Positions 16,226 through 57,250 of a stretch of DNA of 64,000 nucleotides are shown here, one piece after another. The notes under the pieces are model-generated. The model was not told where the DNA came from. It saw only the letters and a program-made list of their open reading frames with translations, and ran no database searches. Source of the DNA: a candidate division WOR-3 bacterium (GTDB lineage: Bacteria; Hydrothermota; 32-111); NCBI GenBank assembly GCA_037481815.1, contig JBBFKX010000001.1, positions 224,001 to 288,000 on the forward strand. Reading direction: 5' to 3'. Every line of letters begins with the position of its first letter. Positions within the stretch are counted from its first letter, which is position 1. Position numbers and translations under genes: made by a program.

Positions 16226-18052
16226 ATGTTTGGAATCTTGTTGTTTTTTTTGTTTTTTGTTTTAAATTTCAATCTATATTCGAATTCGTATGAATTTTCA
16301 AAAATTGTTGATATTGGTAATTCTTTAAAAAGTTTCAATAGTAAGATTTTTGCTACAGAAATTGGATTCTTCTATGATGATAACAATATAACTCCGGTAA
16401 AAATTTTTGATAGAAATGTGAAATCTGTTGCGAAAACTGATTCTTTGTTTTCAATTCTATATGAGGATAATTTTTTTGAAATCTTTAGGATGGATTCGTT
16501 ACCATCATTGATTTTTTCAGATTCGTTTGATTTCAAAGTTGAAAATTTTTTGATCTCAAAAGAATATTTACTTTTTAAAACAGGTGAGGTTTACTATCTT
16601 TATAAATTTAAAGATGATTCTCTGGTACGGATAAAACATTTCAATCTGAATTCAATCTATAAATTTTTTTCACTTAACAACAACCTTCTTTTTATAATTA
16701 ATAATGGTGAAATTATTAAATATGGAAAAGAGGAAGGCGATTCATTTCTATTGAAGAACAGTGTTTTTGTTAACAATTCAAAATTTCTTTTTTTTAACCG
16801 ATATTCAACGATAATTTCAAATTCTACTGATAAGTTTCTCTACTTTTTCGTGTTAAGAGATGATTCTTTAAAACTTTTATATGAGGTTCCAGATAACAGA
16901 ATCTATGAAAATGGATTTATCGTTGATTCTTTTTTGATTCTATCAAGTTCGGATTCTCTTTTTATAAGAACTGTGATCGACTCGTTTATAACATATTCTC
17001 TTGATTCTTTTGAATTTAAATATCCTGTAAAGGATATTGTATTCAAAAATGACACCTTTTTTATTAACACCGGTTATAAAATCATAAAATATCCTTTGAT
17101 TTCAAAATTATTTAAAGAAGGGGAAAATTTTTCCAGAACTTTTCAAGGATTTCTTAGAACGAACTACAAAAAAGGATTTTACTCTGATGACAGTTTTTAC
17201 ATTTTTGTTAAAGATTCAATTGTTGAAGCAAAAGGTAAAAGTAAAACTTTACTGAAAAAAGAAAATATACTTTTATGTTATGATCAAATAATAATTCCAG
17301 AAGAAGATTCTTTTAACTTTTTCCCAATGTATTCCTATGTTAACCTGATCAAATCAACTGTTGATGGTGTCTATTTTATAGATAACAGTTTTAGATTAAA
17401 AAAGATTAACCTCGTAAGTGATTCCATAGAAACACTTTTTGATATAGGTTTTAATTCTAACGATTTTGAACAACACGATTCAATTTTTTATTTTATTTCT
17501 GGGCAGAATGGAATCTTGAAACTTACTCAAAATGGACAATTTATTAGATCATATTTTGATGGTTCTTATTTTAGGAAAATTTTTTCTTTTAAAAATAGGT
17601 TGTTATCCATAAAAGATGATTATAAAATTTCAATAATAGATTCTCACAATCTTATTGTGAATGAAATTTTTTCTATACCGGGCTATGTAGACTTTTATAA
17701 TTACGATGATACATTATTAATTTTTTTAACAGAAGATTCTATAATCTTTTATAAGGATTATATCGAACATGTTTATCTTGAAGGTAAAAATCTAAAGAAT
17801 ATCAAAGATATAATATTTGATGGTCAGGGGTGTTATGTTCTTTTAAAGAATAGTGCGGTTCTATTTTTCAATAAAAAAATATCCCATCTAAAGGAAGATG
17901 ATCAAAAAGGAGAAGTTGATAATTTTACTTTTAAAAACGAAAATGTATGTTATGATATTTTGGGAAGAAAATTATCAAAAAATTTAAATTACAGAGGATT
18001 GTATTTTATAAAAAAAGAAAATAGAGTTAAAAAAGTTTTAAAAATTAAGTGA
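16226..18052 (+). CDS. Hypothetical secreted beta-rich protein with short T9SS-like C-terminal domain
   Basis: Signal peptide; C-terminal CYDILGRKL..RGLYFIK..KKVLKIK. Confidence 0.6.
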   Translation: MFGILLFFLFFVLNFNLYSNSYEFSKIVDIGNSLKSFNSKIFATEIGFFYDDNNITPVKIFDRNVKSVAKTDSLFSILYEDNFFEIFRMDSLPSLIFSDSFDFKVENFLISKEYLLFKTGEVYYLYKFKDDSLVRIKHFNLNSIYKFFSLNNNLLFIINNGEIIKYGKEEGDSFLLKNSVFVNNSKFLFFNRYSTIISNSTDKFLYFFVLRDDSLKLLYEVPDNRIYENGFIVDSFLILSSSDSLFIRTVIDSFITYSLDSFEFKYPVKDIVFKNDTFFINTGYKIIKYPLISKLFKEGENFSRTFQGFLRTNYKKGFYSDDSFYIFVKDSIVEAKGKSKTLLKKENILLCYDQIIIPEEDSFNFFPMYSYVNLIKSTVDGVYFIDNSFRLKKINLVSDSIETLFDIGFNSNDFEQHDSIFYFISGQNGILKLTQNGQFIRSYFDGSYFRKIFSFKNRLLSIKDDYKISIIDSHNLIVNEIFSIPGYVDFYNYDDTLLIFLTEDSIIFYKDYIEHVYLEGKNLKNIKDIIFDGQGCYVLLKNSAVLFFNKKISHLKEDDQKGEVDNFTFKNENVCYDILGRKLSKNLNYRGLYFIKKENRVKKVLKIK

Positions 18053-18059
18053 GGTTTGT

Positions 18060-19064
18060 ATGATAGAAAAATTCATTGAAGAATTGGTATCGATAGATTC
18101 CCCATCAGGTTTTACAGGAGAAATAGTTAAACATATTGAGAAAAGAGTTTCAAATTCTGGTTATAAAACTTTGATAACGAATAAAGGTGCTTTGAAAGTT
18201 TACACGGGGGATAAACCTCTGTATGCGATAACAGCGCATATAGATACACTTGGTGGAATGGTGAAAGAAATAAATTCGGATGGAACTTTAAAGATAACTC
18301 AGATTGGTGGTTTCCCAAACAATTCATTTGAAGGATCTTATTGTAAAATAAGAAATTCAGAAGGTGATATATTCACAGGTACCTATCTTATTAAAAACCC
18401 TTCAACACATGTTAACAGAGATGTTTCAAAAAGTGAAAGAACAACAGAAAATATGATCATAAGATTGGATGAAGAGGTTAAAAGTAGAGAAGATATATTG
18501 AAATTAAAAATAAATGTTGGTGATTTTGTTTTTTTTGATCCCAGATTTGAATTTACAAAATCTGGTTTTGTTAAAACAAGATTTCTTGATGATAAAGCAT
18601 GTGCTGGAATACTTCTCGATTTGTTGATCAACGAAAGTGAAAAACTCAAAAATAAGCCTTTTTTATTCTATTTTTCAATTTATGAGGAAGTTGGGCATGG
18701 AGGAGCAACTGGATTTGACCCATCTATAAAAGAACTGATAGTAGCAGATATGGGAACAGTTGGTGAAGGAGTTGAAGGTGATGAATATTCAGTTTCGATC
18801 TGTGCGAAAGATTCAACCGGCCCTTACGATTATGATTTAAAAAATGAACTTGTCACACTTTGTAAAACTAACGGTATCCCTTACAAAGTTGATGTTTTCC
18901 CTTACTATGGTTCAGATGGGTCAGTAGCACTAAGAGCGGGTTACGATTTTAAAGTTGGATTAATTGGCCCAGGAGTTTCAGCTTCCCATGGAGTCGAAAG
19001 AACACATTTGAAAGCTTTGAAAGCAACAAAAGAATTACTTTTAAAATATATTGAGAAAAGATGA
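18060..19064 (+). CDS. M42 family metallo-aminopeptidase
   Basis: DSPSG, AHIDTLG, RFLDDK, YEEVGHG, YGSDG, SHGVER. Confidence 0.92.
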   Translation: MIEKFIEELVSIDSPSGFTGEIVKHIEKRVSNSGYKTLITNKGALKVYTGDKPLYAITAHIDTLGGMVKEINSDGTLKITQIGGFPNNSFEGSYCKIRNSEGDIFTGTYLIKNPSTHVNRDVSKSERTTENMIIRLDEEVKSREDILKLKINVGDFVFFDPRFEFTKSGFVKTRFLDDKACAGILLDLLINESEKLKNKPFLFYFSIYEEVGHGGATGFDPSIKELIVADMGTVGEGVEGDEYSVSICAKDSTGPYDYDLKNELVTLCKTNGIPYKVDVFPYYGSDGSVALRAGYDFKVGLIGPGVSASHGVERTHLKALKATKELLLKYIEKR

Positions 19065-19525
19065 AGAACTTTTTGCTACTTTTTTTCATAATCTTATTTT
19101 TATTTATGATCGAAATCTTTCTCTGGATTAAAAATTTTTTCTTAGTGATTCTATCTTTTTTTATAGTTATTTTTTTAACTTTTTTGTATCTATCAAGAAT
19201 GACAGAGGACTTAAAAACTTTTAAGAAACTTGTGAGTTTGTTTTTTAAAAATATTGACACAATTTTTTTGATCGTTTTAAAAAATTTTTACTTTTTTACT
19301 TACCTTATATTAAAAAGAAATACTGAAGATGATATTATTGAAAAAAAAATAAATCTTGAAAAAAATGATCAAATTTTTAATCATTTTCTAAAATTGATTT
19401 TTTTTATGGATATAACGATTTTGAATCTATATTTTACTGAAAAATCGTTAAACATAAAAATAAAAAGAGATTTTGATTCTGAAATTTATCAAACGAGATA
19501 TTATAGAATGTTAAGAAAATTATGA
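19061..19525 (+). CDS. Membrane protein, positional MnhE/MbsA-like subunit
   Basis: Size, N-terminal TM segments and first position in the cluster; sequence very diverged. Confidence 0.4.
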   Translation: MKNFLLLFFIILFLFMIEIFLWIKNFFLVILSFFIVIFLTFLYLSRMTEDLKTFKKLVSLFFKNIDTIFLIVLKNFYFFTYLILKRNTEDDIIEKKINLEKNDQIFNHFLKLIFFMDITILNLYFTEKSLNIKIKRDFDSEIYQTRYYRMLRKL

Positions 19526-19770
19526 CACAATATTTTTACTTTTTTATTGTTTTCGTTTTTTCTATCAATTTTATAATTTTAATTTTAAAAAATAAAAAGA
19601 TTGATAAAGTTTTTGCTTTTATGAATATAGCAAATACTTTCATTCTCACAATATTTCTTTTTTCTGATTTCCAAAAATTTTCTATACTTAAACTGTTTTT
19701 TTCTTTAATCTTCATTTTGCAGTCTGGAGTTATAATAAAAAATCTAATCGATAACTTTAAAGAGGTTTAA
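19522..19770 (+). CDS. Small membrane protein, MnhF/MbsB-like
   Basis: 3 TM; IDKVFAFMNI resembles the MnhF DRxxAxD motif; ATGA coupling. Confidence 0.45.
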   Translation: MTQYFYFFIVFVFSINFIILILKNKKIDKVFAFMNIANTFILTIFLFSDFQKFSILKLFFSLIFILQSGVIIKNLIDNFKEV

Positions 19771-20016
19771 ATGTTTTTTCTATGGACAGTTTTCATTTTT
19801 GTTCAAACAATAATAGTCGCAAAGAAAAATGATCCCTATAAAAAAAGGATTTTTGTTTATATGAATATTCTCTTTTCAATTTTCTTACTTTTGTTTGCTT
19901 TTATAAACGCTTTGAAAGGTTTTATTTTTATTGGGATTTTATTGATATTTGTATTTCTGTTTAATCTTTTTATTGTTTTGTATGTTCAATATTTTAGTTT
20001 TTTGGTTTCAGATTGA
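19771..20016 (+). CDS. Small membrane protein, MnhG/MbsC-like
   Basis: 3 TM; DPYKKR resembles MnhG DxYxRxH. Confidence 0.45.
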   Translation: MFFLWTVFIFVQTIIVAKKNDPYKKRIFVYMNILFSIFLLLFAFINALKGFIFIGILLIFVFLFNLFIVLYVQYFSFLVSD

Positions 20017-20024
20017 GGGTAATA

Positions 20025-20264
20025 ATGTTGGATAACAGTTTGATAATACCTGTTTTGATCTTTTTTGCTATACTCGGAAATCTTATTATGTTGTACAATA
20101 AAAAAGGATATGTTTTTTCTTTTATAGTTCTTTTAAACATTTATGCACTGGTAATCTTTTTTTTAGATAATGATTTTATATCAATATTGTTCGTTTTCTT
20201 TAACTCTTTCATTACTTCGAATCTGATGATGAAATTTATAAATGAAATAAATACAAAAAAATGA
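20025..20264 (+). CDS. Small membrane protein, DUF4040/MbsD-like by position
   Basis: 3 TM; size and position only; SD gaggg before ATG 20025. Confidence 0.35.
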   Translation: MLDNSLIIPVLIFFAILGNLIMLYNKKGYVFSFIVLLNIYALVIFFLDNDFISILFVFFNSFITSNLMMKFINEINTKK

Positions 20265-20271
20265 AGTTAAT

Positions 20272-20568
20272 ATGTCAGAGTTTATTTTCATAGAGATTGT
20301 GTTACTGATTATTTTAAATTTGCTAATTTTTATACAAACTGACTCAATAGTCAAAACTTTTGTTTCGTTATTCCAGATGTTTCCTATCCTGTTGATTTTA
20401 ACAATGACAAAAATAATAATCAGTAATACTATACTTGCCACAGTTTATCTTTCAACATTTATAATCTTGAATTTATTGTTGGTTATCATGATTCTTTTTT
20501 TCATAAAAAAAAGTTTAATGATAAAAAAAACCGATAGAAATTTCAGGCCTGATGATTATGATGAATGA
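20272..20568 (+). CDS. Small membrane protein, MnhC/NuoK/MbsG-like
   Basis: 3 TM; DSIVK resembles NLIK motif; position before antiporter subunits. Confidence 0.4.
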   Translation: MSEFIFIEIVLLIILNLLIFIQTDSIVKTFVSLFQMFPILLILTMTKIIISNTILATVYLSTFIILNLLLVIMILFFIKKSLMIKKTDRNFRPDDYDE

Positions 20569-21991
20569 AATTTTATTTTTATTTCTTGTAATGTTTACTT
20601 TTTATTCAATGGACCATTTCAAATTAAAATCTATTAATACACAACTTAACCTCTTGGTTAGTGTATACATCTTATATAAACTTTTGATAGTTTTTTATTC
20701 AAAAAATGAATTTTATGTTTTTAATATTTTACCTTTTTTGACTTTTCATTTTGATTCTCATCGTTCAATAAAAGTACTGGAGTTACTGGTTATATTTTTT
20801 TACTTCATCTTTTTGTTATTGGATAAAGAGAAGGAAGATATTTTTAGAGATAAAAACTACAATATGGTTTTATATTTTTTAGCCGTTCCGATTTCAACAT
20901 TTGCATATAGAACTTCGGATATATTTATTTATTATATTTTTTGTTTTTTAATATTTTTATGTTTAATTTTTACTTATAAAAACAAAAAATTGAGTTTTAT
21001 CACAATAAATGTTAAGGTTTCATTTATCATATATTTTGCTTTCCTAATATCTTATTTTGTATCTGTAAAATTTCTTGAAAATTATAATACAACCAACATT
21101 TTGGAAATTTCAAAAAATACAGGTTTTCAAACTTTAAATGGTTTACTTTTTTATTTACTATTTTTTACTCCTTTACTTTTTTCTTTCATTTTTCCTTTAA
21201 ACATATTTTTATCTGATTTCATATCTACAATGAACACGAAACAGATATCATTGTTCGTGTTATTTTTAACTATTCCTTCTCTTGTATTTATAAACAAACT
21301 TCTTTTGGTAACACCAGTAAAAATAATCAATTCACTTTTTATAATATCACTCTTTTCATACCTGATAAACATAATTCTTCTAATATCTCCTAAAGTAAAA
21401 TATTTTAAAACTTTTTTATTGTTTACGATTTCAAACGAGACCATCCTTCTTATTCTTTTTGAGCATAGATTTAACACTTTTATGTATACGGGATTTTTGT
21501 TTTTTTATGTAGGGCTATTCTTTGCTTTTCTATATTCACTTTCCAAGTTTGATTTTGAAAACGATGATGATCTTAAAAACTCATTTATAAAACAACCAAC
21601 AAATTCTTTAATTTTTTTCATAACAAGTTTTTCTTTCACTTCTTTACCTTTTTCATTGCTCTTTTTGTATCAATACAAATTCCTTCTTATTCTTTACAGA
21701 TTTGAAAAATTTCTTTTTTGGGTGTATCTTATCGCTCTGATATTAAAATCCTATGCTCTCTTAAGGTTCGATCTAAAAATGTTGTTGGTTGAAAGAAGAA
21801 GTAAAAGTCATTTGATAAATCTGATAAAAAACTTTAACAGGATTGATTTTGCTGTCTTAATAACGATTGCAATTCTTGCAATTTTCTTTTATCATAATTT
21901 TGTTAACAGGAAAGAAGAGAATTTTGGTGAATATAGAAAACTTATTTATAAAGTTTCAAGCATGGAAAGCAAAAATATAAATGAAAAATGA
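20552..21991 (+). CDS. Antiporter-like subunit (MnhD/MbsH-like), highly diverged
   Basis: About 14 TM; TSDIFIYYIF, FIFPLNIFL, SFTSLPF resemble proton-conducting transporter motifs. Confidence 0.6.
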   Translation: MIMMNEILFLFLVMFTFYSMDHFKLKSINTQLNLLVSVYILYKLLIVFYSKNEFYVFNILPFLTFHFDSHRSIKVLELLVIFFYFIFLLLDKEKEDIFRDKNYNMVLYFLAVPISTFAYRTSDIFIYYIFCFLIFLCLIFTYKNKKLSFITINVKVSFIIYFAFLISYFVSVKFLENYNTTNILEISKNTGFQTLNGLLFYLLFFTPLLFSFIFPLNIFLSDFISTMNTKQISLFVLFLTIPSLVFINKLLLVTPVKIINSLFIISLFSYLINIILLISPKVKYFKTFLLFTISNETILLILFEHRFNTFMYTGFLFFYVGLFFAFLYSLSKFDFENDDDLKNSFIKQPTNSLIFFITSFSFTSLPFSLLFLYQYKFLLILYRFEKFLFWVYLIALILKSYALLRFDLKMLLVERRSKSHLINLIKNFNRIDFAVLITIAILAIFFYHNFVNRKEENFGEYRKLIYKVSSMESKNINEK

Positions 21992-23706
21992 ATAGTGTAT
22001 ATTTTTATTCATCCATAATCTCCATAATAAGTGTTTACATCTTAGGAAATCTTAATAAAGTTTTAAGGAATGTTTTTGTATCCGTTTTCTTTGTTTTTTC
22101 TTTTCTTTATTTTTATTCGATCGATTCTACAAAATTAACCATCAATTTTTTTGGGTTTGAATCGCTGAACCTGAATTTTTCAAAAACTGACCTCTCATAT
22201 TCTTTTTTAATTCTTAATCATATTCTATTCTTCTTTTTTCTATTGAGGGAGATCTTTCGTGCTCCGCGTGAAAGTGAAAACAGTTATTTTATGAATATCT
22301 GTTTTATTTTTGCTTTGCTGAATCTTATTTTTGTTTCGAATGATTTTATAACCCTATATATATTTTTTGAAATTTTATTCTTTATTATGGTTATAACTTT
22401 AACGATAAATCTCAACGACTATAAAAGTAGTGAAAACATCCTTCTTATTAATCTTTTTGGTTCACTTTTATTGCTCTCGGTTATAGTTGTGATAACATCA
22501 AGTAAAACTTTTTTAAACTGTCCATCTTTTTTTTATATTGTGTTATATATTTCTGTGGCACTCAGGACTCTTGTTTTACCTTTAAGTACCTTTTTTAAAA
22601 AAGAGTTGATGAAGTCAGATTTTAACTTTATGGGTATTTTTACCATGTCAATTTTTCTATCTGGATTTTTTATAATGAGTTTCCTTTACAATAGTTTTTT
22701 AATCAATCAACATTTTTTGCCAGATCTTTCCAAATTTTTTATTTATCTTTTCTTCCTAATAACTTTGTTCATATTTTCCATCGAATCTTTGATTTCAAAT
22801 GATTTAAAATTGTCGATTTTTAATTTTTCAGGAGCAATATTTGTAACAAATCTTTTGATATTTCTTTACTATTCCAATTTTTCTTTTGGATATTTGATAA
22901 ATGTAATTTTTTACTTTATTCCTTTAACTTTTATTTTTATTTTTTTTGATTATATTGAGGATAAATTTAAAACATCAAATTTCAATTTTTTGTTTAACCT
23001 TTTTTATCTGAAACCAATATCATCATTTATAATAATATTATCATTTCTATCGCTTTCATTTCTCTATCCTACTGTTGGTTTTTTCCTTTTTAAAGAACCT
23101 CTTTTTACCTTATCATACAATTCTTTTCCTATATTTTTTGTTTTTCTTATCTATTTTCTTTTTTATCTTACTTTCATTCTGAAATTGTTTTATATTCTTT
23201 TTATTCAAAAAAGTAATATTTCTGAAACCAAAACAATAAAAGATTCTGAATTCTTGATTTCAGTTTTAACAATACCATTTTTAGTGCCAATCTTATTCTT
23301 CGGTATTTTAAAATATATTATTGGTTTTAGTTCTTATATTTCTTATCTAATGATCGTGATTTTAAGTGCAATAATCTTTTTGATTCTCTTGAAAATGAAG
23401 GAGAATGGATTTAACTTGGCAATATTTACAACAGAAAACAGTAAAGAATATTTTTACATTCAAGGCAGAAAAAGTTCGATGATAGGGGATCTATTGAATT
23501 TTGATTTAACCACAAATCAAAAAAATTTGCAAAAATTTTTGGAACAAACCGATTTGAATAGAATATTTCATTCCATAAAAATATTTTTAGAAGATTTTAG
23601 TTTAACTATTTTAAAATTATATCAGAGAAGTTTTTCTGCAACGATATTCATTCTTTTGATTTTTTTTATTTTTCTGTTTATAATTCTGTATAGAGGTAAC
23701 ATATGA
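21988..23706 (+). CDS. Antiporter-like subunit (NuoL/MbsH'-like), highly diverged
   Basis: SNDFITLYIFFEI, LVLPLS, LYPTVGFFLFKE motifs; many TM. Confidence 0.7.
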   Translation: MNSVYFYSSIISIISVYILGNLNKVLRNVFVSVFFVFSFLYFYSIDSTKLTINFFGFESLNLNFSKTDLSYSFLILNHILFFFFLLREIFRAPRESENSYFMNICFIFALLNLIFVSNDFITLYIFFEILFFIMVITLTINLNDYKSSENILLINLFGSLLLLSVIVVITSSKTFLNCPSFFYIVLYISVALRTLVLPLSTFFKKELMKSDFNFMGIFTMSIFLSGFFIMSFLYNSFLINQHFLPDLSKFFIYLFFLITLFIFSIESLISNDLKLSIFNFSGAIFVTNLLIFLYYSNFSFGYLINVIFYFIPLTFIFIFFDYIEDKFKTSNFNFLFNLFYLKPISSFIIILSFLSLSFLYPTVGFFLFKEPLFTLSYNSFPIFFVFLIYFLFYLTFILKLFYILFIQKSNISETKTIKDSEFLISVLTIPFLVPILFFGILKYIIGFSSYISYLMIVILSAIIFLILLKMKENGFNLAIFTTENSKEYFYIQGRKSSMIGDLLNFDLTTNQKNLQKFLEQTDLNRIFHSIKIFLEDFSLTILKLYQRSFSATIFILLIFFIFLFIILYRGNI

Positions 23707-24464
23707 AAATCCTTTATAATTTTATTTTCTTTTACCTCTTAAATTTTGTTGTCATTTTTTGGTTTGAAAAATATTTTTTGTTCAAAATTTCAAGAAGAGA
23801 TGAAAGGGATATAATTCTTTACGATATTGTTTTGTTTTCAAAAGAAAAGTTTTTTTTCATTTTAACTATTATGATTAAAATTATTTTTTTGCTTTTACTC
23901 TATATCTGGTTATATTTAATGAGTAAAGAAAATATTTTGATAATCTTTTCTCTTATCGTTCTTTTGCTTTTTTTCTCATTTTACAGAAAAATTAAAAATT
24001 CACAATTGATCTATCATAAGGAAATACTAAAAGATTACTTGATTACTTTTTTTTCACTTGGAGTATTTCTTCTTAATTTGTTCGCTTTGAATAATCTAAA
24101 CAGAGATAATTTAGGTATTAAACTTATTATTCTTGTGTTGGGTTTTCCCTCTCTGTTTGTTTTAAATTTTGATAAAACAAAACAAAACATTTACTTATAT
24201 ATTTCAAAAGGGGAGTTATATTTTTTAAATATTCTTGACTCCATTTTTTTTACCATTTTAAATTCTTTGTTTATAGTTTTTATGTTAGATTCTGGAATTG
24301 ATTTTTTCTTTTTATCTATAGCAGTTTTCATCTTTAGATTATTTTTCTATACTATTAAAATTGTTTTTTTGAGTTTTTCTTCAAACTTAATGTCTATATT
24401 TTTATTTTTATCGTTTTTTTTGAACATTGTAATCAATGTGATTTTGAAATATGCTGTATGGTAA
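23703..24464 (+). CDS. Membrane subunit, NuoH/MbsM-like by position
   Basis: EKYFLFKISRR..YDIVLFSKE resembles NuoH ERK..R..D..KL..KE; multiple TM. Confidence 0.5.
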   Translation: MKILYNFIFFYLLNFVVIFWFEKYFLFKISRRDERDIILYDIVLFSKEKFFFILTIMIKIIFLLLLYIWLYLMSKENILIIFSLIVLLLFFSFYRKIKNSQLIYHKEILKDYLITFFSLGVFLLNLFALNNLNRDNLGIKLIILVLGFPSLFVLNFDKTKQNIYLYISKGELYFLNILDSIFFTILNSLFIVFMLDSGIDFFFLSIAVFIFRLFFYTIKIVFLSFSSNLMSIFLFLSFFLNIVINVILKYAVW

Positions 24465-24825
24465 AATCTATTTGAAATACATAATCTTTGGATCAGGTTG
24501 TTGCATAGACACTTTCATTTCGCTCGAATCAGAGTGTTATACATCTGAAAAATTGATTCTTGAAAGAACAACTTCTATATTTGATGCTGATATAATTTTT
24601 ATATACGGTTGCCTGAATTCGAATGCTCTTCAGGTTATAAAGAAAGAATTCTTAAATATGAATAAAGTCAAAGTATTTCTTGGTAATTTTACTTTTGTTG
24701 ATGAAAGTGTTAAGGATGAAATTCTTAGAAATTTTGATTACACAATAGTTGGTTGTCCGGTTGATTGCATAAATTTGATCAAATTTTTGGAGGAAAAGTT
24801 TTATGAAAGAAATTTTTTACGATGA
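24451..24825 (+). CDS. NuoB/MbsJ-like Fe-S small subunit, shortened
   Basis: GSGCC, ADIIFIYG, DYTIVGCP. Confidence 0.75.
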   Translation: MLYGKIYLKYIIFGSGCCIDTFISLESECYTSEKLILERTTSIFDADIIFIYGCLNSNALQVIKKEFLNMNKVKVFLGNFTFVDESVKDEILRNFDYTIVGCPVDCINLIKFLEEKFYERNFLR

Positions 24826-25234
24826 TAGCCAATTTTTACAACATGATATAAAAACCCTTATAACGGAAAATATTTTTCCAGGGAAAGATTCTATTTATTT
24901 TAAACTTGAAGAAAAGAAAATCTTGACCTACACACTAGATTTTTTATACAATAAATGGAATTACAAATATCTTTCAACTATTGTTGTGATTGAAAGGGAA
25001 AATGGTTTTACAATAAAATATTTTATAAATTCAACATCCATCAAAAAAAATGTAATTATCGAAGTTTTTGTTGAAAAAGAAAATCCCGTTTTTACTTCCA
25101 TAGATATGATCTATCCTGTTGCTACCATTTTTGAAAGGGAAATCAATAAAAAGTATGGTATTGTTTTTGAAGGTAACCCTGAAACGAAAAATATAATCTA
25201 TAACTACCTTGAGACATCTAAGGAGGAATTTTGA
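24803..25234 (+). CDS. NuoC/MbsK-like subunit
   Basis: SIDMIYPVATIFEREINKKYGIVFEGNP. Confidence 0.85.
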   Translation: MKEIFYDDSQFLQHDIKTLITENIFPGKDSIYFKLEEKKILTYTLDFLYNKWNYKYLSTIVVIERENGFTIKYFINSTSIKKNVIIEVFVEKENPVFTSIDMIYPVATIFEREINKKYGIVFEGNPETKNIIYNYLETSKEEF

Positions 25235-26340
25235 GGAAGAGGTTCCCTTATATTGTTAATACTGTTGATCCCTGTTTATCGTTAGGTAATATTAATTTTG
25301 AATTTGATATAGATAAATTCTCGTTTAAAGAATTGAATATTGATTTTGAAAACGAAAGAAAAAACATAAATAAAACATTGAAAGGGAAAAAAATTTCAAC
25401 TGCCATTAAGATAATACCAAAACTTTCTTTTGTTCAAACATACCATTTTCAAGAGGTCTTTTCTCTTGCGATTGAAGAGATATATAATGTTAAAATACCA
25501 GAAAAATCTAAAATTTTTAGAATGATTGTTTTAGAACTTGAAAGAATATCAGCATCTTTACTTTTTTTATCAACAATTTCATCCGTCCTTGGTTTTGAAA
25601 CTTTTAAATACTGGACTCTGAAAGATCGAGAAAAGGTTGTTTCAATATTGAAAATTTTAACAAAAAACGAAAATATTTTAACCGATTTCATCGTTCCAGG
25701 AGGTATTATGAGGAGAATTTATAATGTTGATATAGAAACAATGTTGGAATTTTTTGATAGATACTTTGAAAAGATTTTGTTTGATTATGAAAAAATCTTT
25801 TTCAAAAATATTTCTCTTATATCAAGAACAAAGGATTTTGGTGTTTTCGAAAAAGAAATTTTAAAAAAAAATAATGCAACTGGACTTTTACTCAGAAGTT
25901 GTGGGATAAAATTTGATTTAAGAAAAAACGTTCCTTATGAGATGTATAAAAAAGTTGAATTTCCGATTTATCATTTTGAAGTTTCAGATGTTTATAACAG
26001 GATTCTTTCCTTGTATTTTGAAATAAAAAATTCGATAAAAATAATAAAGTGTTGTTTAAAATTCTTGAATGAAATATCTGATGAGGATTTTCAAAATGAA
26101 ATTCCTTATCATGAAAAAATAGGTAACAGATTTTCTTTCAAAAGAATTGAAGGTGTAAATGGTGAACTTTCTGTTTATGTCGAAGTTCGTGATTCGAATA
26201 TAGAACATATAAAATTTACATCTCCTTCTTTTATAAACGGTCTTTTAATGATCAACAAATTAAGTGGGAACTATTCGTGCTCAGATATACCTTTAATTTA
26301 TTCATCTCTCTATATAGTTCCAATGGAGGTTTTTATATGA
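25231..26340 (+). CDS. NuoD/MbsL-like large subunit lacking NiFe and catalytic cysteines
   Basis: LELERISASL, VPGG, TGLLLRSCGIKFDLRKNVPY, EGVNGEL, TSPS; no CxxC motifs. Confidence 0.85.
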   Translation: MRKRFPYIVNTVDPCLSLGNINFEFDIDKFSFKELNIDFENERKNINKTLKGKKISTAIKIIPKLSFVQTYHFQEVFSLAIEEIYNVKIPEKSKIFRMIVLELERISASLLFLSTISSVLGFETFKYWTLKDREKVVSILKILTKNENILTDFIVPGGIMRRIYNVDIETMLEFFDRYFEKILFDYEKIFFKNISLISRTKDFGVFEKEILKKNNATGLLLRSCGIKFDLRKNVPYEMYKKVEFPIYHFEVSDVYNRILSLYFEIKNSIKIIKCCLKFLNEISDEDFQNEIPYHEKIGNRFSFKRIEGVNGELSVYVEVRDSNIEHIKFTSPSFINGLLMINKLSGNYSCSDIPLIYSSLYIVPMEVFI

Positions 26341-26648
26341 TCAACATTGTTGGTTTTTTTGAAACTTTTTTTCAATTGAAATATCTTGTTAGAAAAGAAA
26401 AAAAGGAATTCTTTTTTACTGGGGGTATAAAATTGGTTGTTCCCTCACTGGATAAAGAAAAATGTAATCTGTGTGAATTGTGTGTTGATATATGTCCAAC
26501 AAAAAGTTTTAAAACAAAAGAAGAAAACCTTGTTTTTGACATAATAAGATGTATAAATTGTTCTTTATGCATCGAAGAGTGCCCTCAGAATGCTTTAAAA
26601 AAAGAATTAACAGAAAGGATAGTTTTGAAAAAAACAGATCATATTTAA
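26337..26648 (+). CDS. NuoI/MbsN-like 2[4Fe-4S] ferredoxin subunit
   Basis: CNLCELCVDICP and CINCSLCIEECP; SD ggagg and ATGA overlap give start 26337. Confidence 0.85.
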   Translation: MINIVGFFETFFQLKYLVRKEKKEFFFTGGIKLVVPSLDKEKCNLCELCVDICPTKSFKTKEENLVFDIIRCINCSLCIEECPQNALKKELTERIVLKKTDHI

Positions 26649-26690: not shown

Positions 26691-27209
26691 ATGTTTATAA
26701 AATTAAACAACAAAGAACCACAACCACCTTTTTATATTTCTGAAGATGCTGTATTGATAGGAGATGTAAGATGTAAAGAAAATTCATCGATCTGGTTCAA
26801 ATCAGTTTTAAGAGGTGATATAAATTATATTGAAATTGGAAAATATTCGAATGTTCAAGATCTTTCTGTATGTCATGTGACATTTGAGTTACCATGCATC
26901 GTTGGAGATTATGTAACCGTTGGACATAACGCTGTGTTGCACGGATGCAAAATTTCTAATTATGTTCTTATCGGTATGGGAAGTGTTATTTTAGATGGTG
27001 TAGAAATAGGTGAAGGAAGTATTATTGCCGCAGGAACGGTTGTAAAAGAAAATAGTAAAATACCCCCTTTCTCTCTTGTTGCTGGAGTCCCCGGACAGAT
27101 AAAAAAAACTCTACCAGAAAGTGTAATAGATGATTTAAAGAAGCACGCTGAATCTTATTTCGAATTCGCAAAATCTCTCAAGAAAAACGGGAAAACCATT
27201 TTATATTGA
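26691..27209 (+). CDS. Gamma-carbonic anhydrase family protein
   Basis: LRGDIN, NVQD..H, TVGHNAVLHGC, hexapeptide repeats. Confidence 0.92.
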   Translation: MFIKLNNKEPQPPFYISEDAVLIGDVRCKENSSIWFKSVLRGDINYIEIGKYSNVQDLSVCHVTFELPCIVGDYVTVGHNAVLHGCKISNYVLIGMGSVILDGVEIGEGSIIAAGTVVKENSKIPPFSLVAGVPGQIKKTLPESVIDDLKKHAESYFEFAKSLKKNGKTILY

Positions 27210-27233
27210 CTTGATATTTTTAAAAGTTATAAT
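27206..27233 (+). promoter_or_regulatory. sigma70 promoter of rnpB-asnS
   Basis: TTGACT-N16-TATAAT. Confidence 0.8.
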
Positions 27234-27238
27234 AGAAA

Positions 27239-27570
27239 TTGTGGGTAGATGCTGGCTACAAGTTCTTTAACTTGAGGAAAGTCCGAACTCCGCAGGGCAG
27301 GATGCCGGGTAACACCCGGAAAGCGAAAGCTTATGGAAAGTGCAACAGAAAATATACCGCCTACCTATGGTAGGTAAGGGTGAAAAGGTGAGGTAAGAGC
27401 TCACCATCTGTTCAGGTAACTGAACAGATTGGCAAACCCCATCCGGAGCAAGATCAAACAGAGGTTAGCTTGCCCGGCTGATACCTCGGGTAGATCGCTT
27501 GAGATGGTTGGTAACAACCATCGCAGATAGATTGCCAGAAAACAGAATTCGGCTTACTATCTACCCACAA
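27239..27570 (+). ncRNA. rnpB: RNase P RNA, bacterial class A
   Basis: GAGGAAAGTCCG, AGTGCAACAGAAA, GGGTGAAA, GGCAAACCCC..GAGCAA, ACAGAATTCGGCTTA; P1 ttgtgggtagat/atctacccacaa. Confidence 0.95.
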
Positions 27571-27594
27571 ATTTTTATAGTTTTGGAGGTTCAA

Positions 27595-28890
27595 TTGAAA
27601 TATTTAACAGTTGATGAATTGAAAAATCATATTGGTGAAGAGGTTGAATTGAAGGGCTGGGTATACAATACCCGTTCAAGTGGAAAAATTTCTTTTCTTT
27701 TGTTCAGAGATGGAACAGGTATAGTCCAAGCAGTTTTGTATCATCCCAACCACAATGAAGAGATCATAAAAAGATTTGATGAGTTGACACAGGAAACGAG
27801 TTTAGTATTGTTTGGAAAGATAAGGGAGGATAAAAGAGCTCCATCAGGGGTTGAACTTGATATAATAGATTTTAAAATTATTTCAAAATCGATAGATTAT
27901 CCGATTTCTCCAAAGGAACATGGTGTTGATTTTTTACAATCCAATAGACACTTATGGCTCAGGTCAAAAAAACAGGCAGCTTTGATGAGGGTAAGAAGTG
28001 ATGTTGTTTTTTATGCGAGAGAATTTTTTAACAACAGGAAATTTTTATGTATCGATGCTCCGATATTCACCCCATCGGCCTGTGAAGGAACCACAACTCT
28101 TTTTGAGGTTAACTATTTTGATGAAAAAAAGGTTTATCTTTCCCAATCAGGTCAACTCTACATGGAAGCAGCAGCACTCGCTTATGGAAAAGTTTACTGT
28201 TTTGGTCCGGCTTTTAGAGCAGAAAAATCAAAAACGAGAAGACATTTAACAGAGTTCTGGCAGATTGAACCGGAGGTTGCTTTCTTTGATATAGACGATG
28301 ATATGGAACTTGCTGAAGATCTTGTTGTATATTTGGTTGAAAAAATACTTGAAAGGAGAGTTGAAGATTTGAAAACATTGGAAAGGGATATCAAACCACT
28401 CGAAAATGTAAAAAAACCTTTTTATAGAATAACATATGAAGATGCGATTAAAATTCTAAACAAAAAAGGAATCGATATAAAGTTTGGAGATGATTTTGGT
28501 GCACCAGATGAGGCCGCTCTGTCATTAGAGTTCGATAGACCTGTTTTTGTTCACAGGTACCCTGCTGAAATAAAAGCGTTTTATATGAAAAGGGATAAAG
28601 ATAGACCTGATCTTGCTCTTGGTTTTGACATGATTGCAGGGGAAGGATATGGAGAAACGATTGGAGGTGGACAAAGAGAAGACGATTATGATACACTTTT
28701 AAAAAGAATCGAAGAACATAAACTTCCAGTTGAAAATTTCAACTGGTATCTTGATTTAAGAAAATATGGTTCTGTTCCGCATGCTGGTTTTGGACTTGGA
28801 ATCGAAAGATTTGTTCAATGGATCACCAAAACCCAACATATAAGAGAAGTGATTCCATTTGCCAGAACACTTGATAGAACTGAGCCTTAA
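27595..28890 (+). CDS. asnS: Asparagine--tRNA ligase
   Basis: OB-fold N-terminus; RHLWLRS, YLSQSGQLY, FRAEKSKTRRHL, KAFYMK, PHAGFGLGIER; TTG start after ggaggt. Confidence 0.93.
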   Translation: MKYLTVDELKNHIGEEVELKGWVYNTRSSGKISFLLFRDGTGIVQAVLYHPNHNEEIIKRFDELTQETSLVLFGKIREDKRAPSGVELDIIDFKIISKSIDYPISPKEHGVDFLQSNRHLWLRSKKQAALMRVRSDVVFYAREFFNNRKFLCIDAPIFTPSACEGTTTLFEVNYFDEKKVYLSQSGQLYMEAAALAYGKVYCFGPAFRAEKSKTRRHLTEFWQIEPEVAFFDIDDDMELAEDLVVYLVEKILERRVEDLKTLERDIKPLENVKKPFYRITYEDAIKILNKKGIDIKFGDDFGAPDEAALSLEFDRPVFVHRYPAEIKAFYMKRDKDRPDLALGFDMIAGEGYGETIGGGQREDDYDTLLKRIEEHKLPVENFNWYLDLRKYGSVPHAGFGLGIERFVQWITKTQHIREVIPFARTLDRTEP

Positions 28891-37726: not shown

Positions 37727-39031
37727 GTGAACAAAGAAAGAGAAAGGGAAATTATTGAAGCGATAAAGGAGATCAGTGCTGTAAAAAATATTGATAAAAG
37801 TAAACTTTTGAAAATTGTTGAAGAATCGCTTAAATTTGCTGTTCAAAAACATTACGGGGAGGATGGTGATTATAAAGTAACGATCAATGAAGCAACTGGA
37901 GAAATAAAGATTGAAAGGGGGCTTCTGATTGTTGAAAATGTTGAAGAGCCAAATCTTGAAATAAGTTTGGAAGATGCGATGGAAAGCACCACTGATGAGA
38001 AATCAAAGAAAAATATAAAACTCGGTAATAAGTTCTGGGAAGAACTTTCAGTTGAGGATGTTGGCAGGAGTGCTATCAACAGAATGAAACAACTTATAAA
38101 CACGAAGGTACTTGCTGAAGAAAGAGAGTCATTGTTCAACGAGTTCTCAGCGAAAGTTGGAATGCTTGTCAATGGACATATAAAAAAGATCGATAAAGTA
38201 AAAGGTTTTGTTTATATAAACCTTGCGAGATTGGATGCAAAAATGGCTTTTGATGAGGCGATTCCGGATGAGATAAAAAATTTCAGACAGGGCAAACTTC
38301 TAAAAGCTGTTATCATTGAAGTAAAAAAGAATAACAACAAGGATCCGGAAATATTCTTGTCAAGAAAATCTGACGAATTTCTGAAAAAACTTTTAGAATT
38401 TGAAGTTCCTGAAATAGAAGAGGGTTCTGTTGTAATAAAAGGTATCGCAAGAGAACCTGGCAAAAGATCGAAGATTGCGGTAATGTCTCTTGACGATAAA
38501 ATCGACCCAGTTGGTGCATGTGTTGGAGTTAAAGGTTCAAGAATCCATACAATAATCAGAGAGTTGAACAACGAACACATTGATATAATTCAGTGGTCAT
38601 CTGATCCTACACTATATACTCAAAGGGCAATATCACCGGGAACTATTATTCGAGCATTTAAGAATGAAGAGATGAAAACGATGAAACTTGTCGTAAAAGA
38701 TGATACGAAAGACAAAGCTATAGGAAAAGATGGAGTAAATCTCAAACTCGCATCGAGGTTGACTGGCTGGAATTTACAGGTTATATCTGAAAGTGAATTC
38801 AAAGAGGAACTTGGAAAAAGCTCAGATATAAATCCAATCTATGAATTGAAGGATATCACAGAAAATCAGAAAGAAAATCTTGTAAAAGCAGGTTATAAAA
38901 ATGTTGAAGAGATAGTTCAAAAAGGAATCGAAGAACTTGAAAATATACAGGGTTTTGGAAAGAAAACAGCAGAAAAAATTATGAAAAGTGCTCAGGAGTA
39001 TTTAAAAGAAAGGGAGTCAAATAATGCCTAA
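37727..39031 (+). CDS. nusA: Transcription termination/antitermination factor NusA
   Basis: AREPGKRSKIAV, DPVGACVG, AIGKDGVN.KLASRLTGW; C-terminal HhH. Confidence 0.96.
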   Translation: MNKEREREIIEAIKEISAVKNIDKSKLLKIVEESLKFAVQKHYGEDGDYKVTINEATGEIKIERGLLIVENVEEPNLEISLEDAMESTTDEKSKKNIKLGNKFWEELSVEDVGRSAINRMKQLINTKVLAEERESLFNEFSAKVGMLVNGHIKKIDKVKGFVYINLARLDAKMAFDEAIPDEIKNFRQGKLLKAVIIEVKKNNNKDPEIFLSRKSDEFLKKLLEFEVPEIEEGSVVIKGIAREPGKRSKIAVMSLDDKIDPVGACVGVKGSRIHTIIRELNNEHIDIIQWSSDPTLYTQRAISPGTIIRAFKNEEMKTMKLVVKDDTKDKAIGKDGVNLKLASRLTGWNLQVISESEFKEELGKSSDINPIYELKDITENQKENLVKAGYKNVEEIVQKGIEELENIQGFGKKTAEKIMKSAQEYLKERESNNA

Positions 39032-55988: not shown

Positions 55989-55996
55989 CACAGATC

Positions 55997-56025
55997 AAAA
56001 ATGTCAAAAAGTCAAGCACCGTCCC
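55997..56025. repeat. 29-bp direct repeat, copy 1 (REP-like)
   Basis: aaaaatgtcaaaaagtcaagcaccgtccc, identical to 57213-57241. Confidence 0.9.
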
Positions 56026-56094
56026 CAATCAAAATAAACTATTATATATTTGATAGTTATTGACATAAACAATTGTTTTGATAATATAAAATCT

Positions 56095-57168: not shown

Positions 57169-57212
57169 AAATTTGTATGGTCTATATCTCATTTAATTTT
57201 TTATACTTACAA

Positions 57213-57241
57213 AAAAATGTCAAAAAGTCAAGCACCGTCCC
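57213..57241. repeat. 29-bp direct repeat, copy 2 (REP-like)
   Basis: Identical to 55997-56025. Confidence 0.9.
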
Positions 57242-57250
57242 TGATTCTTA

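Follow-up and report, generated by a model that had tools for sequence, protein, structure and literature searches.

A fast-evolving, nickel-free operon of the complex I superfamily in a candidate division WOR-3 bacterium, probably descended from an Mbx-like operon

We studied a 64,000-nucleotide stretch of DNA (here, the window) from a candidate division WOR-3 bacterium (GenBank assembly GCA_037481815.1, contig JBBFKX010000001.1, positions 224,001 to 288,000), which carries on its + strand, in 19061-26648, twelve open reading frames (ORFs) for a predicted membrane complex related to complex I and to Mbx-type complexes. A preliminary description, made from the letters of this DNA, had reported that these ORFs are tightly packed, mostly overlapping and without internal stops. 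All of this was borne out. We found no internal stop, and 4-nt overlaps were present at 19522, 20013, 21988, 23703, and 25231, together with longer overlaps of 17, 14, and 23 nt, one abutment (19770/19771), and one 7-nt gap (20264/20272). The last subunit, N, most likely starts at the ATG at 26337 (MINIVGF...) and not at the GTG at 26277 of the longest ORF, because all five genus-mates start there.

The DNA is also more AT-rich than its flanks, as first noted, with a guanine-plus-cytosine (GC) content per 1-kb interval of 0.198 to 0.259 (19001-26000) versus 0.327 (18001-19000) and 0.385 (27001-28000). At third codon positions, GC was equal in the operon genes (0.20 to 0.30) and the flanks (0.20 to 0.26), and the deficit lay in codon positions 1 and 2 taken together (0.17 to 0.30 versus 0.27 to 0.40). 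Therefore, it is proteins rich in Phe, Ile, Leu, Lys, and Asn that make this DNA AT-rich, and not a foreign origin. The upstream 608-amino-acid (aa) gene is just as AT-rich (GC of 0.245).

Our comparison covered 14 species genomes from 5 genera of the family. We refer to the genus of the window's organism as g1 (six genomes, i.e., the window's own assembly, G000, of 1.58 Mb and 95% completeness, and five genus-mates), to a second genus that carries the divergent operon as g5 (three genomes), and to the sister genera as g2, g3, and g4. The gene order had been likened to that of the Mbs/Mbx operons, with the MbsE/MnhB equivalent absent, and this likeness extends to the relatives. An MnhB/MbsE gene was missing in 6/6 g1 genomes, so that 12 of the 13 positions of the Thermococcales order (A-B-C-D-E-G-H-H'-M-J-K-L-N) are occupied in g1, one short of the full 13-gene set, and an ORF of 217 to 222 aa with no Pfam match stands at the missing position in all three g5 genomes. 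When the 12 proteins were searched against Pfam and NCBIfam, only three matched above threshold, namely, the NuoC-like and NuoD-like proteins and the two-cluster ferredoxin domain. The NuoB-like protein reached only an E value of 0.026, and the eight membrane proteins had no family even at an E value of ≤1.

What could not be seen in a single sequence is that the sister genera have a normal Mbx-like operon at the same position, of which the operon studied here is the diverged ortholog. We call this ordinary operon type A (G006, G007, and G008; loci L038 to L040). It has the order MnhE-F-G, MbhD, MnhB, MnhC, H, H', M, J, K, L, and an N-GltD-like fusion, followed by rex; its proteins are ordinary both in their Pfam matches (NADHdh, 4e-55; Proton_antipo_M, 3e-43) and in their motifs (GPQHP, RGFEKL, RICVPE, CPPEIER, and CTGC). 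In G006, the 597-aa protein upstream of type A resembles that encoded at 16226-18052 of the window (E value of 2e-09 over 557 aa), and the hexapeptide-repeat gene downstream is 66% identical to the one at 26691-27209 (4e-85). The five genomes of g2, g3, and g4 each have one type A copy and no second copy. The divergent L, on the other hand, was found in 9/14 family genomes (6/6 in g1 and 3/3 in g5), and most of these (5/6 in g1 and 2/3 in g5) have a second L match that scores as a well-conserved Mbx-like operon, here called type B, which we read directly in G001, G002, G005, and G013 (L019, L020:3824-14688, L021, and L041:3591-14438). All 13 type B proteins of the same genus match Pfam strongly, with E values from 1e-78 (Complex1_49kDa) to 1.6e-15 and with MNHE at 3e-40, which means that base composition is not the cause of the blank searches with the divergent proteins, and type B L is 84% identical between g1 and g5. 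The N proteins of type A (587 to 595 aa) and type B (618 to 619 aa) each contain Fer4_20 and Pyr_redox_2, and the GltD-fused N of type B implies a predicted NAD(P)H-linked complex. The divergent operon, which shares locus and flanks with type A and has type B alongside it, is therefore orthologous to type A by position and has a paralog in the same lineage. We consider it highly likely both that it has this descent and that it encodes a nickel-free relative of complex I belonging to the Ehr class, to which we return below.

The differences from type A are graded between the two genera. In both, N is without the GltD-like domain found in types A and B, J has CC for CxxC, and the MbsL-type Cys residues are replaced by Ser and Val/Ile; g1 has additionally lost MnhB, the third J Cys, the NuoK-type carboxylate, two segments of M, and rex at the locus. 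In g5, g2, and g4, N and the hexapeptide gene are separated by rex (PF06971 plus PF02629; L022:842-1534, L023:1682-2335, L024:9526-10188, L038:15318-15878, and L039:2335-2970). This gene is missing there in 6/6 g1 genomes, and the G000 assembly has no Rex family match. Rex operator patterns (consensus with up to three mismatches) numbered 5 in the window versus 15 expected by chance, none of them upstream of the operon, and a scan for sigma-70-like promoters gave consensus matches only, which we did not use as evidence. An M42 aminopeptidase gene stands at the same place in 9/9 genomes with the divergent operon, and the type A loci of G006, G007, and G008 are without it; its insertion coincides with the divergence of the operon.

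Alignment scores (hhalign) against types A and B, respectively, were 170 and 40 for H' (E values of 9.5e-22 and 4e-4), 35 and 14 for M, 360 and 293 for L, 85 and 61 for K, and 97 and 78 for H, while J and N scored about equally. In the phylogeny of L, a check that the preliminary description had proposed, the nine divergent sequences form one clade (support of 100) on a long stem, and the approximately unbiased (AU) test did not reject its grouping with type A (P value of 0.377; 0.025 for type B), but the attachment of the stem varied with the model. A rival reading is a transfer, in which the common ancestor of both genera acquired a distinct Ehr-type operon that took the place of type A. In its favor, J has the tandem CC typical of complex I/NDH-1 and is closer in profile to NdhK/NuoB than to MbhJ. 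The L clade stands beside Cys-less, non-Mbx rows under LG+G4 (support of 91, open fork), and P0003, which ranks first among the non-self matches of L, fuses N, J, and L in one protein and has CC as well. However, a transfer would require exact positional replacement between the same flanking genes, and type A outscores type B for H', M, L, K, and H. Moreover, H' shares 31% identity with type A H' over its N-terminal 127 residues, the LG+G4 neighbors vanish under the mixture model, and the AU test leaves the clade with type A unrejected. Among 1.84 billion representative proteins, only two clusters fell in the clade (563 and 452 bits; the next match had 215 bits), with no donor lineage visible. 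We regard a transfer as quite improbable.

The operon is under selection. All 12 ORFs were intact and syntenic between the same neighbors in 5/5 genus-mates (60 orthologous ORFs with no stop), whose L proteins are 86, 86, 73, 72, and 50% identical to that of the window, and 13/13 ORFs were intact in the three g5 genomes (39 ORFs, also with no stop). In total, there was not a single stop in 99 orthologous ORFs from eight other genomes, even with synonymous sites saturated in the comparison of G000 with G005 and within g5. The ratio of nonsynonymous to synonymous substitution rates (dN/dS; Nei-Gojobori method, four close pairs with dS of 0.25 to 1.09) was between 0.06 and 0.56 across all 48 gene-pair values. 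In a substitution-only neutral simulation of the 12 operon frames (200 runs per divergence level), 0.1 changes per site produced a mean of 45 in-frame stops and at least 29 in every run. Purifying selection thus keeps the operon intact and simple decay is excluded, contrary to the scattered stops and dN/dS near 1 that the preliminary description had named as its signs. An operon on its way to loss, nonfunctional and merely unbroken so far, would explain why dN/dS is raised relative to the paralog and why known functional residues are gone; with genomes that are not near-clonal (dS of 0.25 to above 2), the ratios just given, and none of 200 neutral runs free of stops, we find it extremely unlikely.

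Selection is nevertheless relaxed about 3- to 5-fold relative to the paralog and the flanks, and the operon evolves about 3 to 5 times faster. Between G001 and G002, dN/dS was 0.07 to 0.40 in the divergent operon versus 0.00 to 0.09 in type B and 0.03 to 0.06 in two flanking genes. The alternatives offered at the outset, a member of the complex I superfamily or an operon under relaxed selection, therefore both hold in part, except that the relaxation is not decay and selection remains clearly purifying. As a rate calibrator we used the hexapeptide-repeat gene, which is 65 to 71% identical between genera. L is 77% identical among type A copies, but a divergent copy shares 27% identity with type A, and the divergent copies of g1 and g5 share only 32% with each other, from which we conclude that fast evolution was sustained and not a single burst. 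Contigs from four other metagenome runs have near-identical DNA (0 to 4 differences per listed piece), too close to inform on selection; one of them has a 2-base deletion at 25785 at low depth (2.2 of 10.5).

In the hydrophilic arm, the large-subunit motifs were as first read. KLSFVQ of L (within PKLSFVQTYH) aligned to RICVPE of Mbx-type proteins, to the first CxxC of hydrogenases, and to DRLDY of complex I; in alignment with the canonical paralog, the C-terminal IVPMEVFI falls at the column of CPP(D/E)xDR. GPxHP and RGxEK are gone, with VDPCLSLG in place of the former. None of the four Ni-Fe Cys ligands of group 4 [NiFe] hydrogenases is present in any of the nine orthologs. Ser66 and Val363 (Ile in g5) occupy the columns of C85 and C385, the two Cys of MbsL, and Phe67 occupies that of Nqo4 Tyr87, with no His in the beta1-beta2 loop where Nqo4 has His38. 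Ser66-Phe67 and Pro364-Met365-Glu366 are invariant in 9/9 orthologs. The best PDB sequence match was MbsL (6u8y_L, 1.6e-28), and the AlphaFold2 (AF2) model (predicted template modeling score [pTM] of 0.76) gave Foldseek template modeling scores of 0.64 to 0.72 to 49-kDa/Nqo4/MbsL chains. P0003 (668 aa) consists of fused NuoI-like, NuoB-like (CC), and NuoD-like (RICVLD...CPADHDR) parts.

The Cys patterns of the two small iron-sulfur subunits had also been read correctly (GCC...GNF...GCP in the NuoB-like protein and eight Cys in the NuoI-like protein). J has GCC and GCP in 9/9 orthologs, with GNF in 6/6 g1 genomes and G(E/K)C in 3/3 g5 genomes, which gives four Cys in g5; types A and B have CTGC. 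The MbsJ-type pattern CxxC...GxC...GCP is therefore absent, and g1, with Asn79 in place of the third Cys, has only three of the four Cys of complex I cluster N2, whereas g5 has all four. A profile of J (those of J and H were built from the nine orthologs) matched NdhK (5e-09), PSST/NuoB (approximately 1e-05), and MbhJ (1.8e-04), the CC aligning to the tandem CC of complex I. N has eight Cys in 9/9 orthologs, and these, like the CC and CP of J, are kept in sequences otherwise only 20 to 40% identical.

The membrane arm has diverged further. Proteins at the MnhE, MnhF, and MnhG positions have no Pfam or NCBIfam match, and hhalign to the canonical E protein gave a probability of only 0.8 to 3.7%; Kyte-Doolittle helix counts are unreliable for such very hydrophobic small subunits and were not used. 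At the MbhD position, the g5 ortholog matched PF13244 below threshold (E value of 0.0067) and the window's own protein had no match. The g5 orthologs of the MnhC/NuoK-like subunit matched PF00420 (Oxidored_q2), also below threshold (6e-4 and 0.12). Where the canonical NuoK-like subunit has SIMETA, with the membrane Glu, g5 has a nearby Asp and g1 has LFQMF, with no carboxylate. The C-terminal tail of this subunit, (D/E)(R/K)(N/D)(F/Y)RPxxYD (20530-20568 in the window), is conserved in both divergent genera and is not found in the canonical paralog. Neither antiporter-like subunit has a Pfam match. The H profile matched MrpD (7d3u_D, 5.3e-06, positions 9 to 417) and NuoN (0.0014), and hhalign to type A H gave a probability of 97.6% (3.6e-12). 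H' aligned to type A H' with an hhalign probability of 99.4% over 356 columns, with BLASTP giving 3e-11 for its N-terminal 127 aa; a PDB profile search gave a weak NdhD match (0.0022). Glu128 in transmembrane helix 5 (TM5), Lys274, and the ESExSYxMN and YQRS...A motifs of H' are kept in 9/9 orthologs, and H' of the window has a Lys at the TM12 position.

Subunit M has no Pfam match, and a PDB profile search gave no match at an E value of ≤10. Its AF2 model (predicted local distance difference test score of 80.4; pTM of 0.79) had no Foldseek match at an E value of ≤0.001, yet nine of the top 10 chains belong to the ND1 family. With VIA-align against 48,161 chains, the top five were all ND1-family chains, aligned over 232 to 247 of 253 residues (Z scores of 15.7 for 7a23_H, 14.8 for 8iuf_N1, 14.6 for MbhM 6cfw_M, 14.2 for MbsM 6u8y_m, and 12.4 for HycD 7z0t_D), and the sixth was unrelated (9.9). 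In the ESM Atlas, the best score was 0.85 with template modeling scores of ≤0.34, which is chance level. By its predicted fold alone, M is a NuoH/ND1-type anchor; the g5 ortholog also matches type B MbxM (BLASTP, 6e-07). Compared with g5, M of g1 has gaps of 13 and 7 columns where g5 aligns with QQxG...W and with a PF region of canonical MbxM, deletions that would map to the loop coupling transmembrane helices 5 and 6 in MBS. Together, Mrp/NuoLMN-type antiporter subunits, a NuoH/ND1-type anchor, and a NuoD-type large subunit with adjacent NuoB-, NuoC-, and NuoI-type subunits place the operon in the complex I superfamily, an identity that the profiles (J, H, and H') and structure predictions (L and M) proposed at the outset support.

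The founding paper on Ehr complexes is reportedly that of Marreiros et al. (2013). As two later papers (PMC6349859 and PMC10284858) describe it, Ehr is a class of hydrogenase-related complexes without Ni-Fe Cys and of unknown function, and the loss of Ni-Fe and quinone residues is a defining trait of this already named class. The large subunit here is without the two CxxC Ni-Fe motifs and is encoded with Mrp/complex I-type membrane subunits. Judged from the predicted proteins, the operon fits the loose definition of Ehr and departs from the specific features of [NiFe] hydrogenase, MBS, and complex I; it is therefore new as a variant and not as a kind of complex. Literature on WOR-3, TA06, Mbx, and hydrogenases (main texts) yielded no account of it. 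It shares with Ehr the combination of NuoB/C/I-like, NuoH-like, and Mrp-antiporter-like subunits. It differs in that its descent from an Mbx-like ortholog with MbsL-type Cys and a GltD-fused N is visible within one family, and also in the full Mrp-type set of small subunits (by position), the eight membrane subunits without Pfam match, and the loss of one proximal-cluster ligand.

Known relatives differ from it in other ways. With MBS, the sulfane sulfur reductase of Pyrococcus furiosus (formerly MBX; 6U8Y), it has in common the gene order A-B-C-D-(E)-G-H-H'-M-J-K-L-N, MbsL as the best match of L, the MbsM fold of M, two clusters in N, and, in g1, a proximal cluster with three Cys. The preliminary description had taken the two Cys of MbsL as catalytic. 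This was wrong, since the C85A/C385A enzyme keeps its activity according to Yu et al. (2020; PMC7684303), who place the catalytic site of MBS at the proximal [4Fe-4S] cluster of MbsJ, with only three Cys ligands. These are C28, C93, and C123 of MbsJ; the divergent J, in contrast, has CC for CxxC and is without the GxC ligand that MBS uses, and the divergent L has no equivalents of C85 and C385. In addition, g1 is without MbsE, H, H', and the small subunits have lost several of their charged residues, and the complex is bacterial and known from its genes alone. With complex I/NDH-1, it shares the tandem CC of the NuoB-like subunit, a large subunit without Cys ligands, and 49-kDa subunits as the best Foldseek matches of L, but it has Phe for Nqo4 Tyr87, no NuoEFG, and an Mrp-type membrane arm. 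Type A has the same locus, flanks, and gene order, and its H, H', M, J, K, L, and N are recognizable homologs, but the divergent proteins are only 22 to 28% identical to it while the hexapeptide neighbor is 65% identical.

As an overall explanation, we favor with moderate confidence a diverged type A ortholog that is still a predicted redox-active membrane complex. How it would work is a more tentative matter; the mechanism that we find the most likely, with somewhat less than even confidence, is that of an Fe-S-bearing, ferredoxin-fed membrane complex with weakened or altered ion coupling. The complex would still assemble, N would hold two [4Fe-4S] clusters and J one cluster, and electrons would still pass through both because the cluster ligands are invariant. 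Reduced ferredoxin, the most plausible donor because the NAD(P)H module is gone, would give electrons directly at N, and four 2-oxoacid:ferredoxin oxidoreductase genes might supply it (G000 has four matches to POR_N, of the alpha type, as well as RnfD at 4e-107). From there, electrons may reach the proximal cluster, which has three Cys ligands in g1 and could offer an open iron site as in MBS, so that a small acceptor would be reduced in the J-L-M chamber and ion translocation would be weakened or altered. Quinone and protons are unlikely acceptors because L has no quinone-site residues, there is no quinone-pathway match, and there is no Ni-Fe site. The G000 assembly has no match to [FeFe] or [NiFe] hydrogenases, to PF02621 (MqnA/D), or to TIGR00751 (MenA), and three matches to the generic UbiA family.

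Several observations weigh against this picture. Aligned with MrpD and NuoN, H has lost the TM5 Glu and the TM7 Lys, retaining only the TM12 Lys/Arg; H' of both divergent genera has Arg193 where the TM7 Lys is expected and has lost both the TM8 Lys and the TM11 His/Lys. With these coupling residues, the NuoK-type Glu, MnhB, and part of the M loop gone, ion pumping may be lost. The three Cys of J are not those of MbsJ, since the GxC ligand is the one missing here, and g5 keeps four, which makes the open-iron analogy loose. Operon context suggests no acceptor. L by itself places the clade nowhere, as its neighbors under LG+G4 were Cys-less rows and it stood by itself when the C20 mixture model was used (a quick version of that analysis). 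The order of events, type B first and divergence after, is deduced from finding both operons together in related genomes, and this counts as one event only. Finally, the second canonical copy that the preliminary description had thought worth looking for exists as type B in sister genomes of the genus, but neither it nor its downstream flank has a match in the window's own 95%-complete assembly. Two contigs of this assembly (C7:1-751 and C11:1-705) end within the region just upstream of type B in G002 (91 to 93% identical), and since C7 ends about 170 bases short of the type B start, absence of type B from G000 is not established. Its absence from the assembly could reflect an assembly gap or a real deletion.

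The same losses could be read as those of a redox-inert remnant, a complex that is made but kept as a scaffold, an assembly partner, or a redox or Fe-S sensor, in which the clusters are structural. The loss of coupling features was stepwise (GltD module, MnhB, J ligand, membrane carboxylates and lysines, and M loops), the fast evolution was sustained (dN 3- to 5-fold above the paralog), and Rnf here or type B in the sister genomes could take over energy conservation. However, eight N Cys and three J Cys that are invariant in nine sequences of 20 to 40% identity are hard to explain without clusters. H' keeps its TM5 Glu and Lys274 in 9/9 orthologs, besides the TM12-position Lys in the window, and 12 to 13 genes would be a costly scaffold in a 1.6-Mb genome. 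We therefore see an inert remnant as unlikely. For the redox-active ortholog, apparently kept intact from the time that the lineage gained a second, normal copy, a further step would be that the resident complex was repurposed after the second Mbx-like operon appeared and now works without the known catalytic and quinone-site residues, much of the proton path, and the NAD(P)H module. This we consider doubtful, if somewhat less so than an inert remnant. A repurposed complex may act on a new substrate through a site-differentiated proximal cluster, or it may serve in the membrane as a redox-gated device other than a pump.

Ehr-type complexes, with no nickel and no quinone site, are widespread and of unknown function. 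Here, a single locus presents a series from the ordinary type A through the intermediate g5 (which still has MnhB, four J Cys, rex, and a NuoK-like subunit with an acidic residue) to the most reduced g1, with the paralog as an internal control. The series shows which complex-I-like residues and subunits are dispensable under selection and which are not. Those never lost in 9/9 orthologs (the eight Cys of N, CC/CP of J, Glu128/Lys274 of H', and Ser66-Phe67 and Pro-Met-Glu of L) are targets for Ehr biochemistry. The predicted folds of L and M are kept as well. If the complex was in fact repurposed, the family would show an Ehr-type complex born from an Mbx-type ancestor. There is also a warning for annotation, as routine pipelines would name parts of the operon nuo and overlook the other eight genes.

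Table 1. Genes of the operon and its immediate neighbors, with positions in the window
Feature	Position	Strand	Basis and remarks
608-aa protein	16226..18052	+	Upstream neighbor, outside the complex; no Pfam match at E ≤0.001
M42 glutamyl aminopeptidase	18060..19064	+	PF05343, 1.3e-70; overlaps first operon gene by 4 nt
MnhE/MbsA-position subunit, 154 aa	19061..19525	+	Putative, by position only; dN/dS 0.16-0.19 in close pairs
MnhF/MbsB-position subunit, 82 aa	19522..19770	+	Putative, by position and length only; dN/dS 0.15-0.56
MnhG/MbsC-position subunit, 81 aa	19771..20016	+	Putative, by position and length only; dN/dS 0.23-0.36
MbhD/DUF4040/MbsD-position subunit, 83 aa	20013..20264	+	TTG start; sub-threshold match of g5 ortholog
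MnhC/NuoK-like subunit, 98 aa	20272..20568	+	Sub-threshold matches of g5 orthologs
Antiporter-like subunit H, 479 aa	20552..21991	+	MrpD/NuoN-like; profile and hhalign
Antiporter-like subunit H', 572 aa	21988..23706	+	hhalign to type A H'; best-conserved membrane subunit
Subunit M, 253 aa	23703..24464	+	NuoH/ND1/MbsM fold; by fold only
Subunit J, 124 aa	24451..24825	+	NuoB-like; profile; Cys17-Cys18 and Cys102 kept, Asn79 at third ligand position
Subunit K, 143 aa	24803..25234	+	NuoC-like; PF00329, 2.5e-15; dN/dS 0.06-0.13
Subunit L, 369 aa	25231..26340	+	NuoD/MbsL-like; TTG start; PF00346, 7.7e-38
Subunit N, 103 aa	26337..26648	+	NuoI-like, two [4Fe-4S] motifs; Fer4 families, 1e-12; 8 Cys
Hexapeptide-repeat (gamma-carbonic-anhydrase-like) protein	26691..27209	+	PF00132, 3.8e-15; downstream neighbor

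Elsewhere in the window, the interval 39001-40000 had an AT skew of 0.527, confined to this one 1-kb interval (0.18 to 0.24 in its neighbors). A repeat of about 30 to 45 bases is present at 55996-56041 and 57207-57245, with about 60 further copies across G000, many of them at the ends of contigs. A 305-aa ORF (MRRARVKYEGSYHH...) that adjoins copies of this repeat in G002 may be similar to the REP-associated tyrosine transposases.

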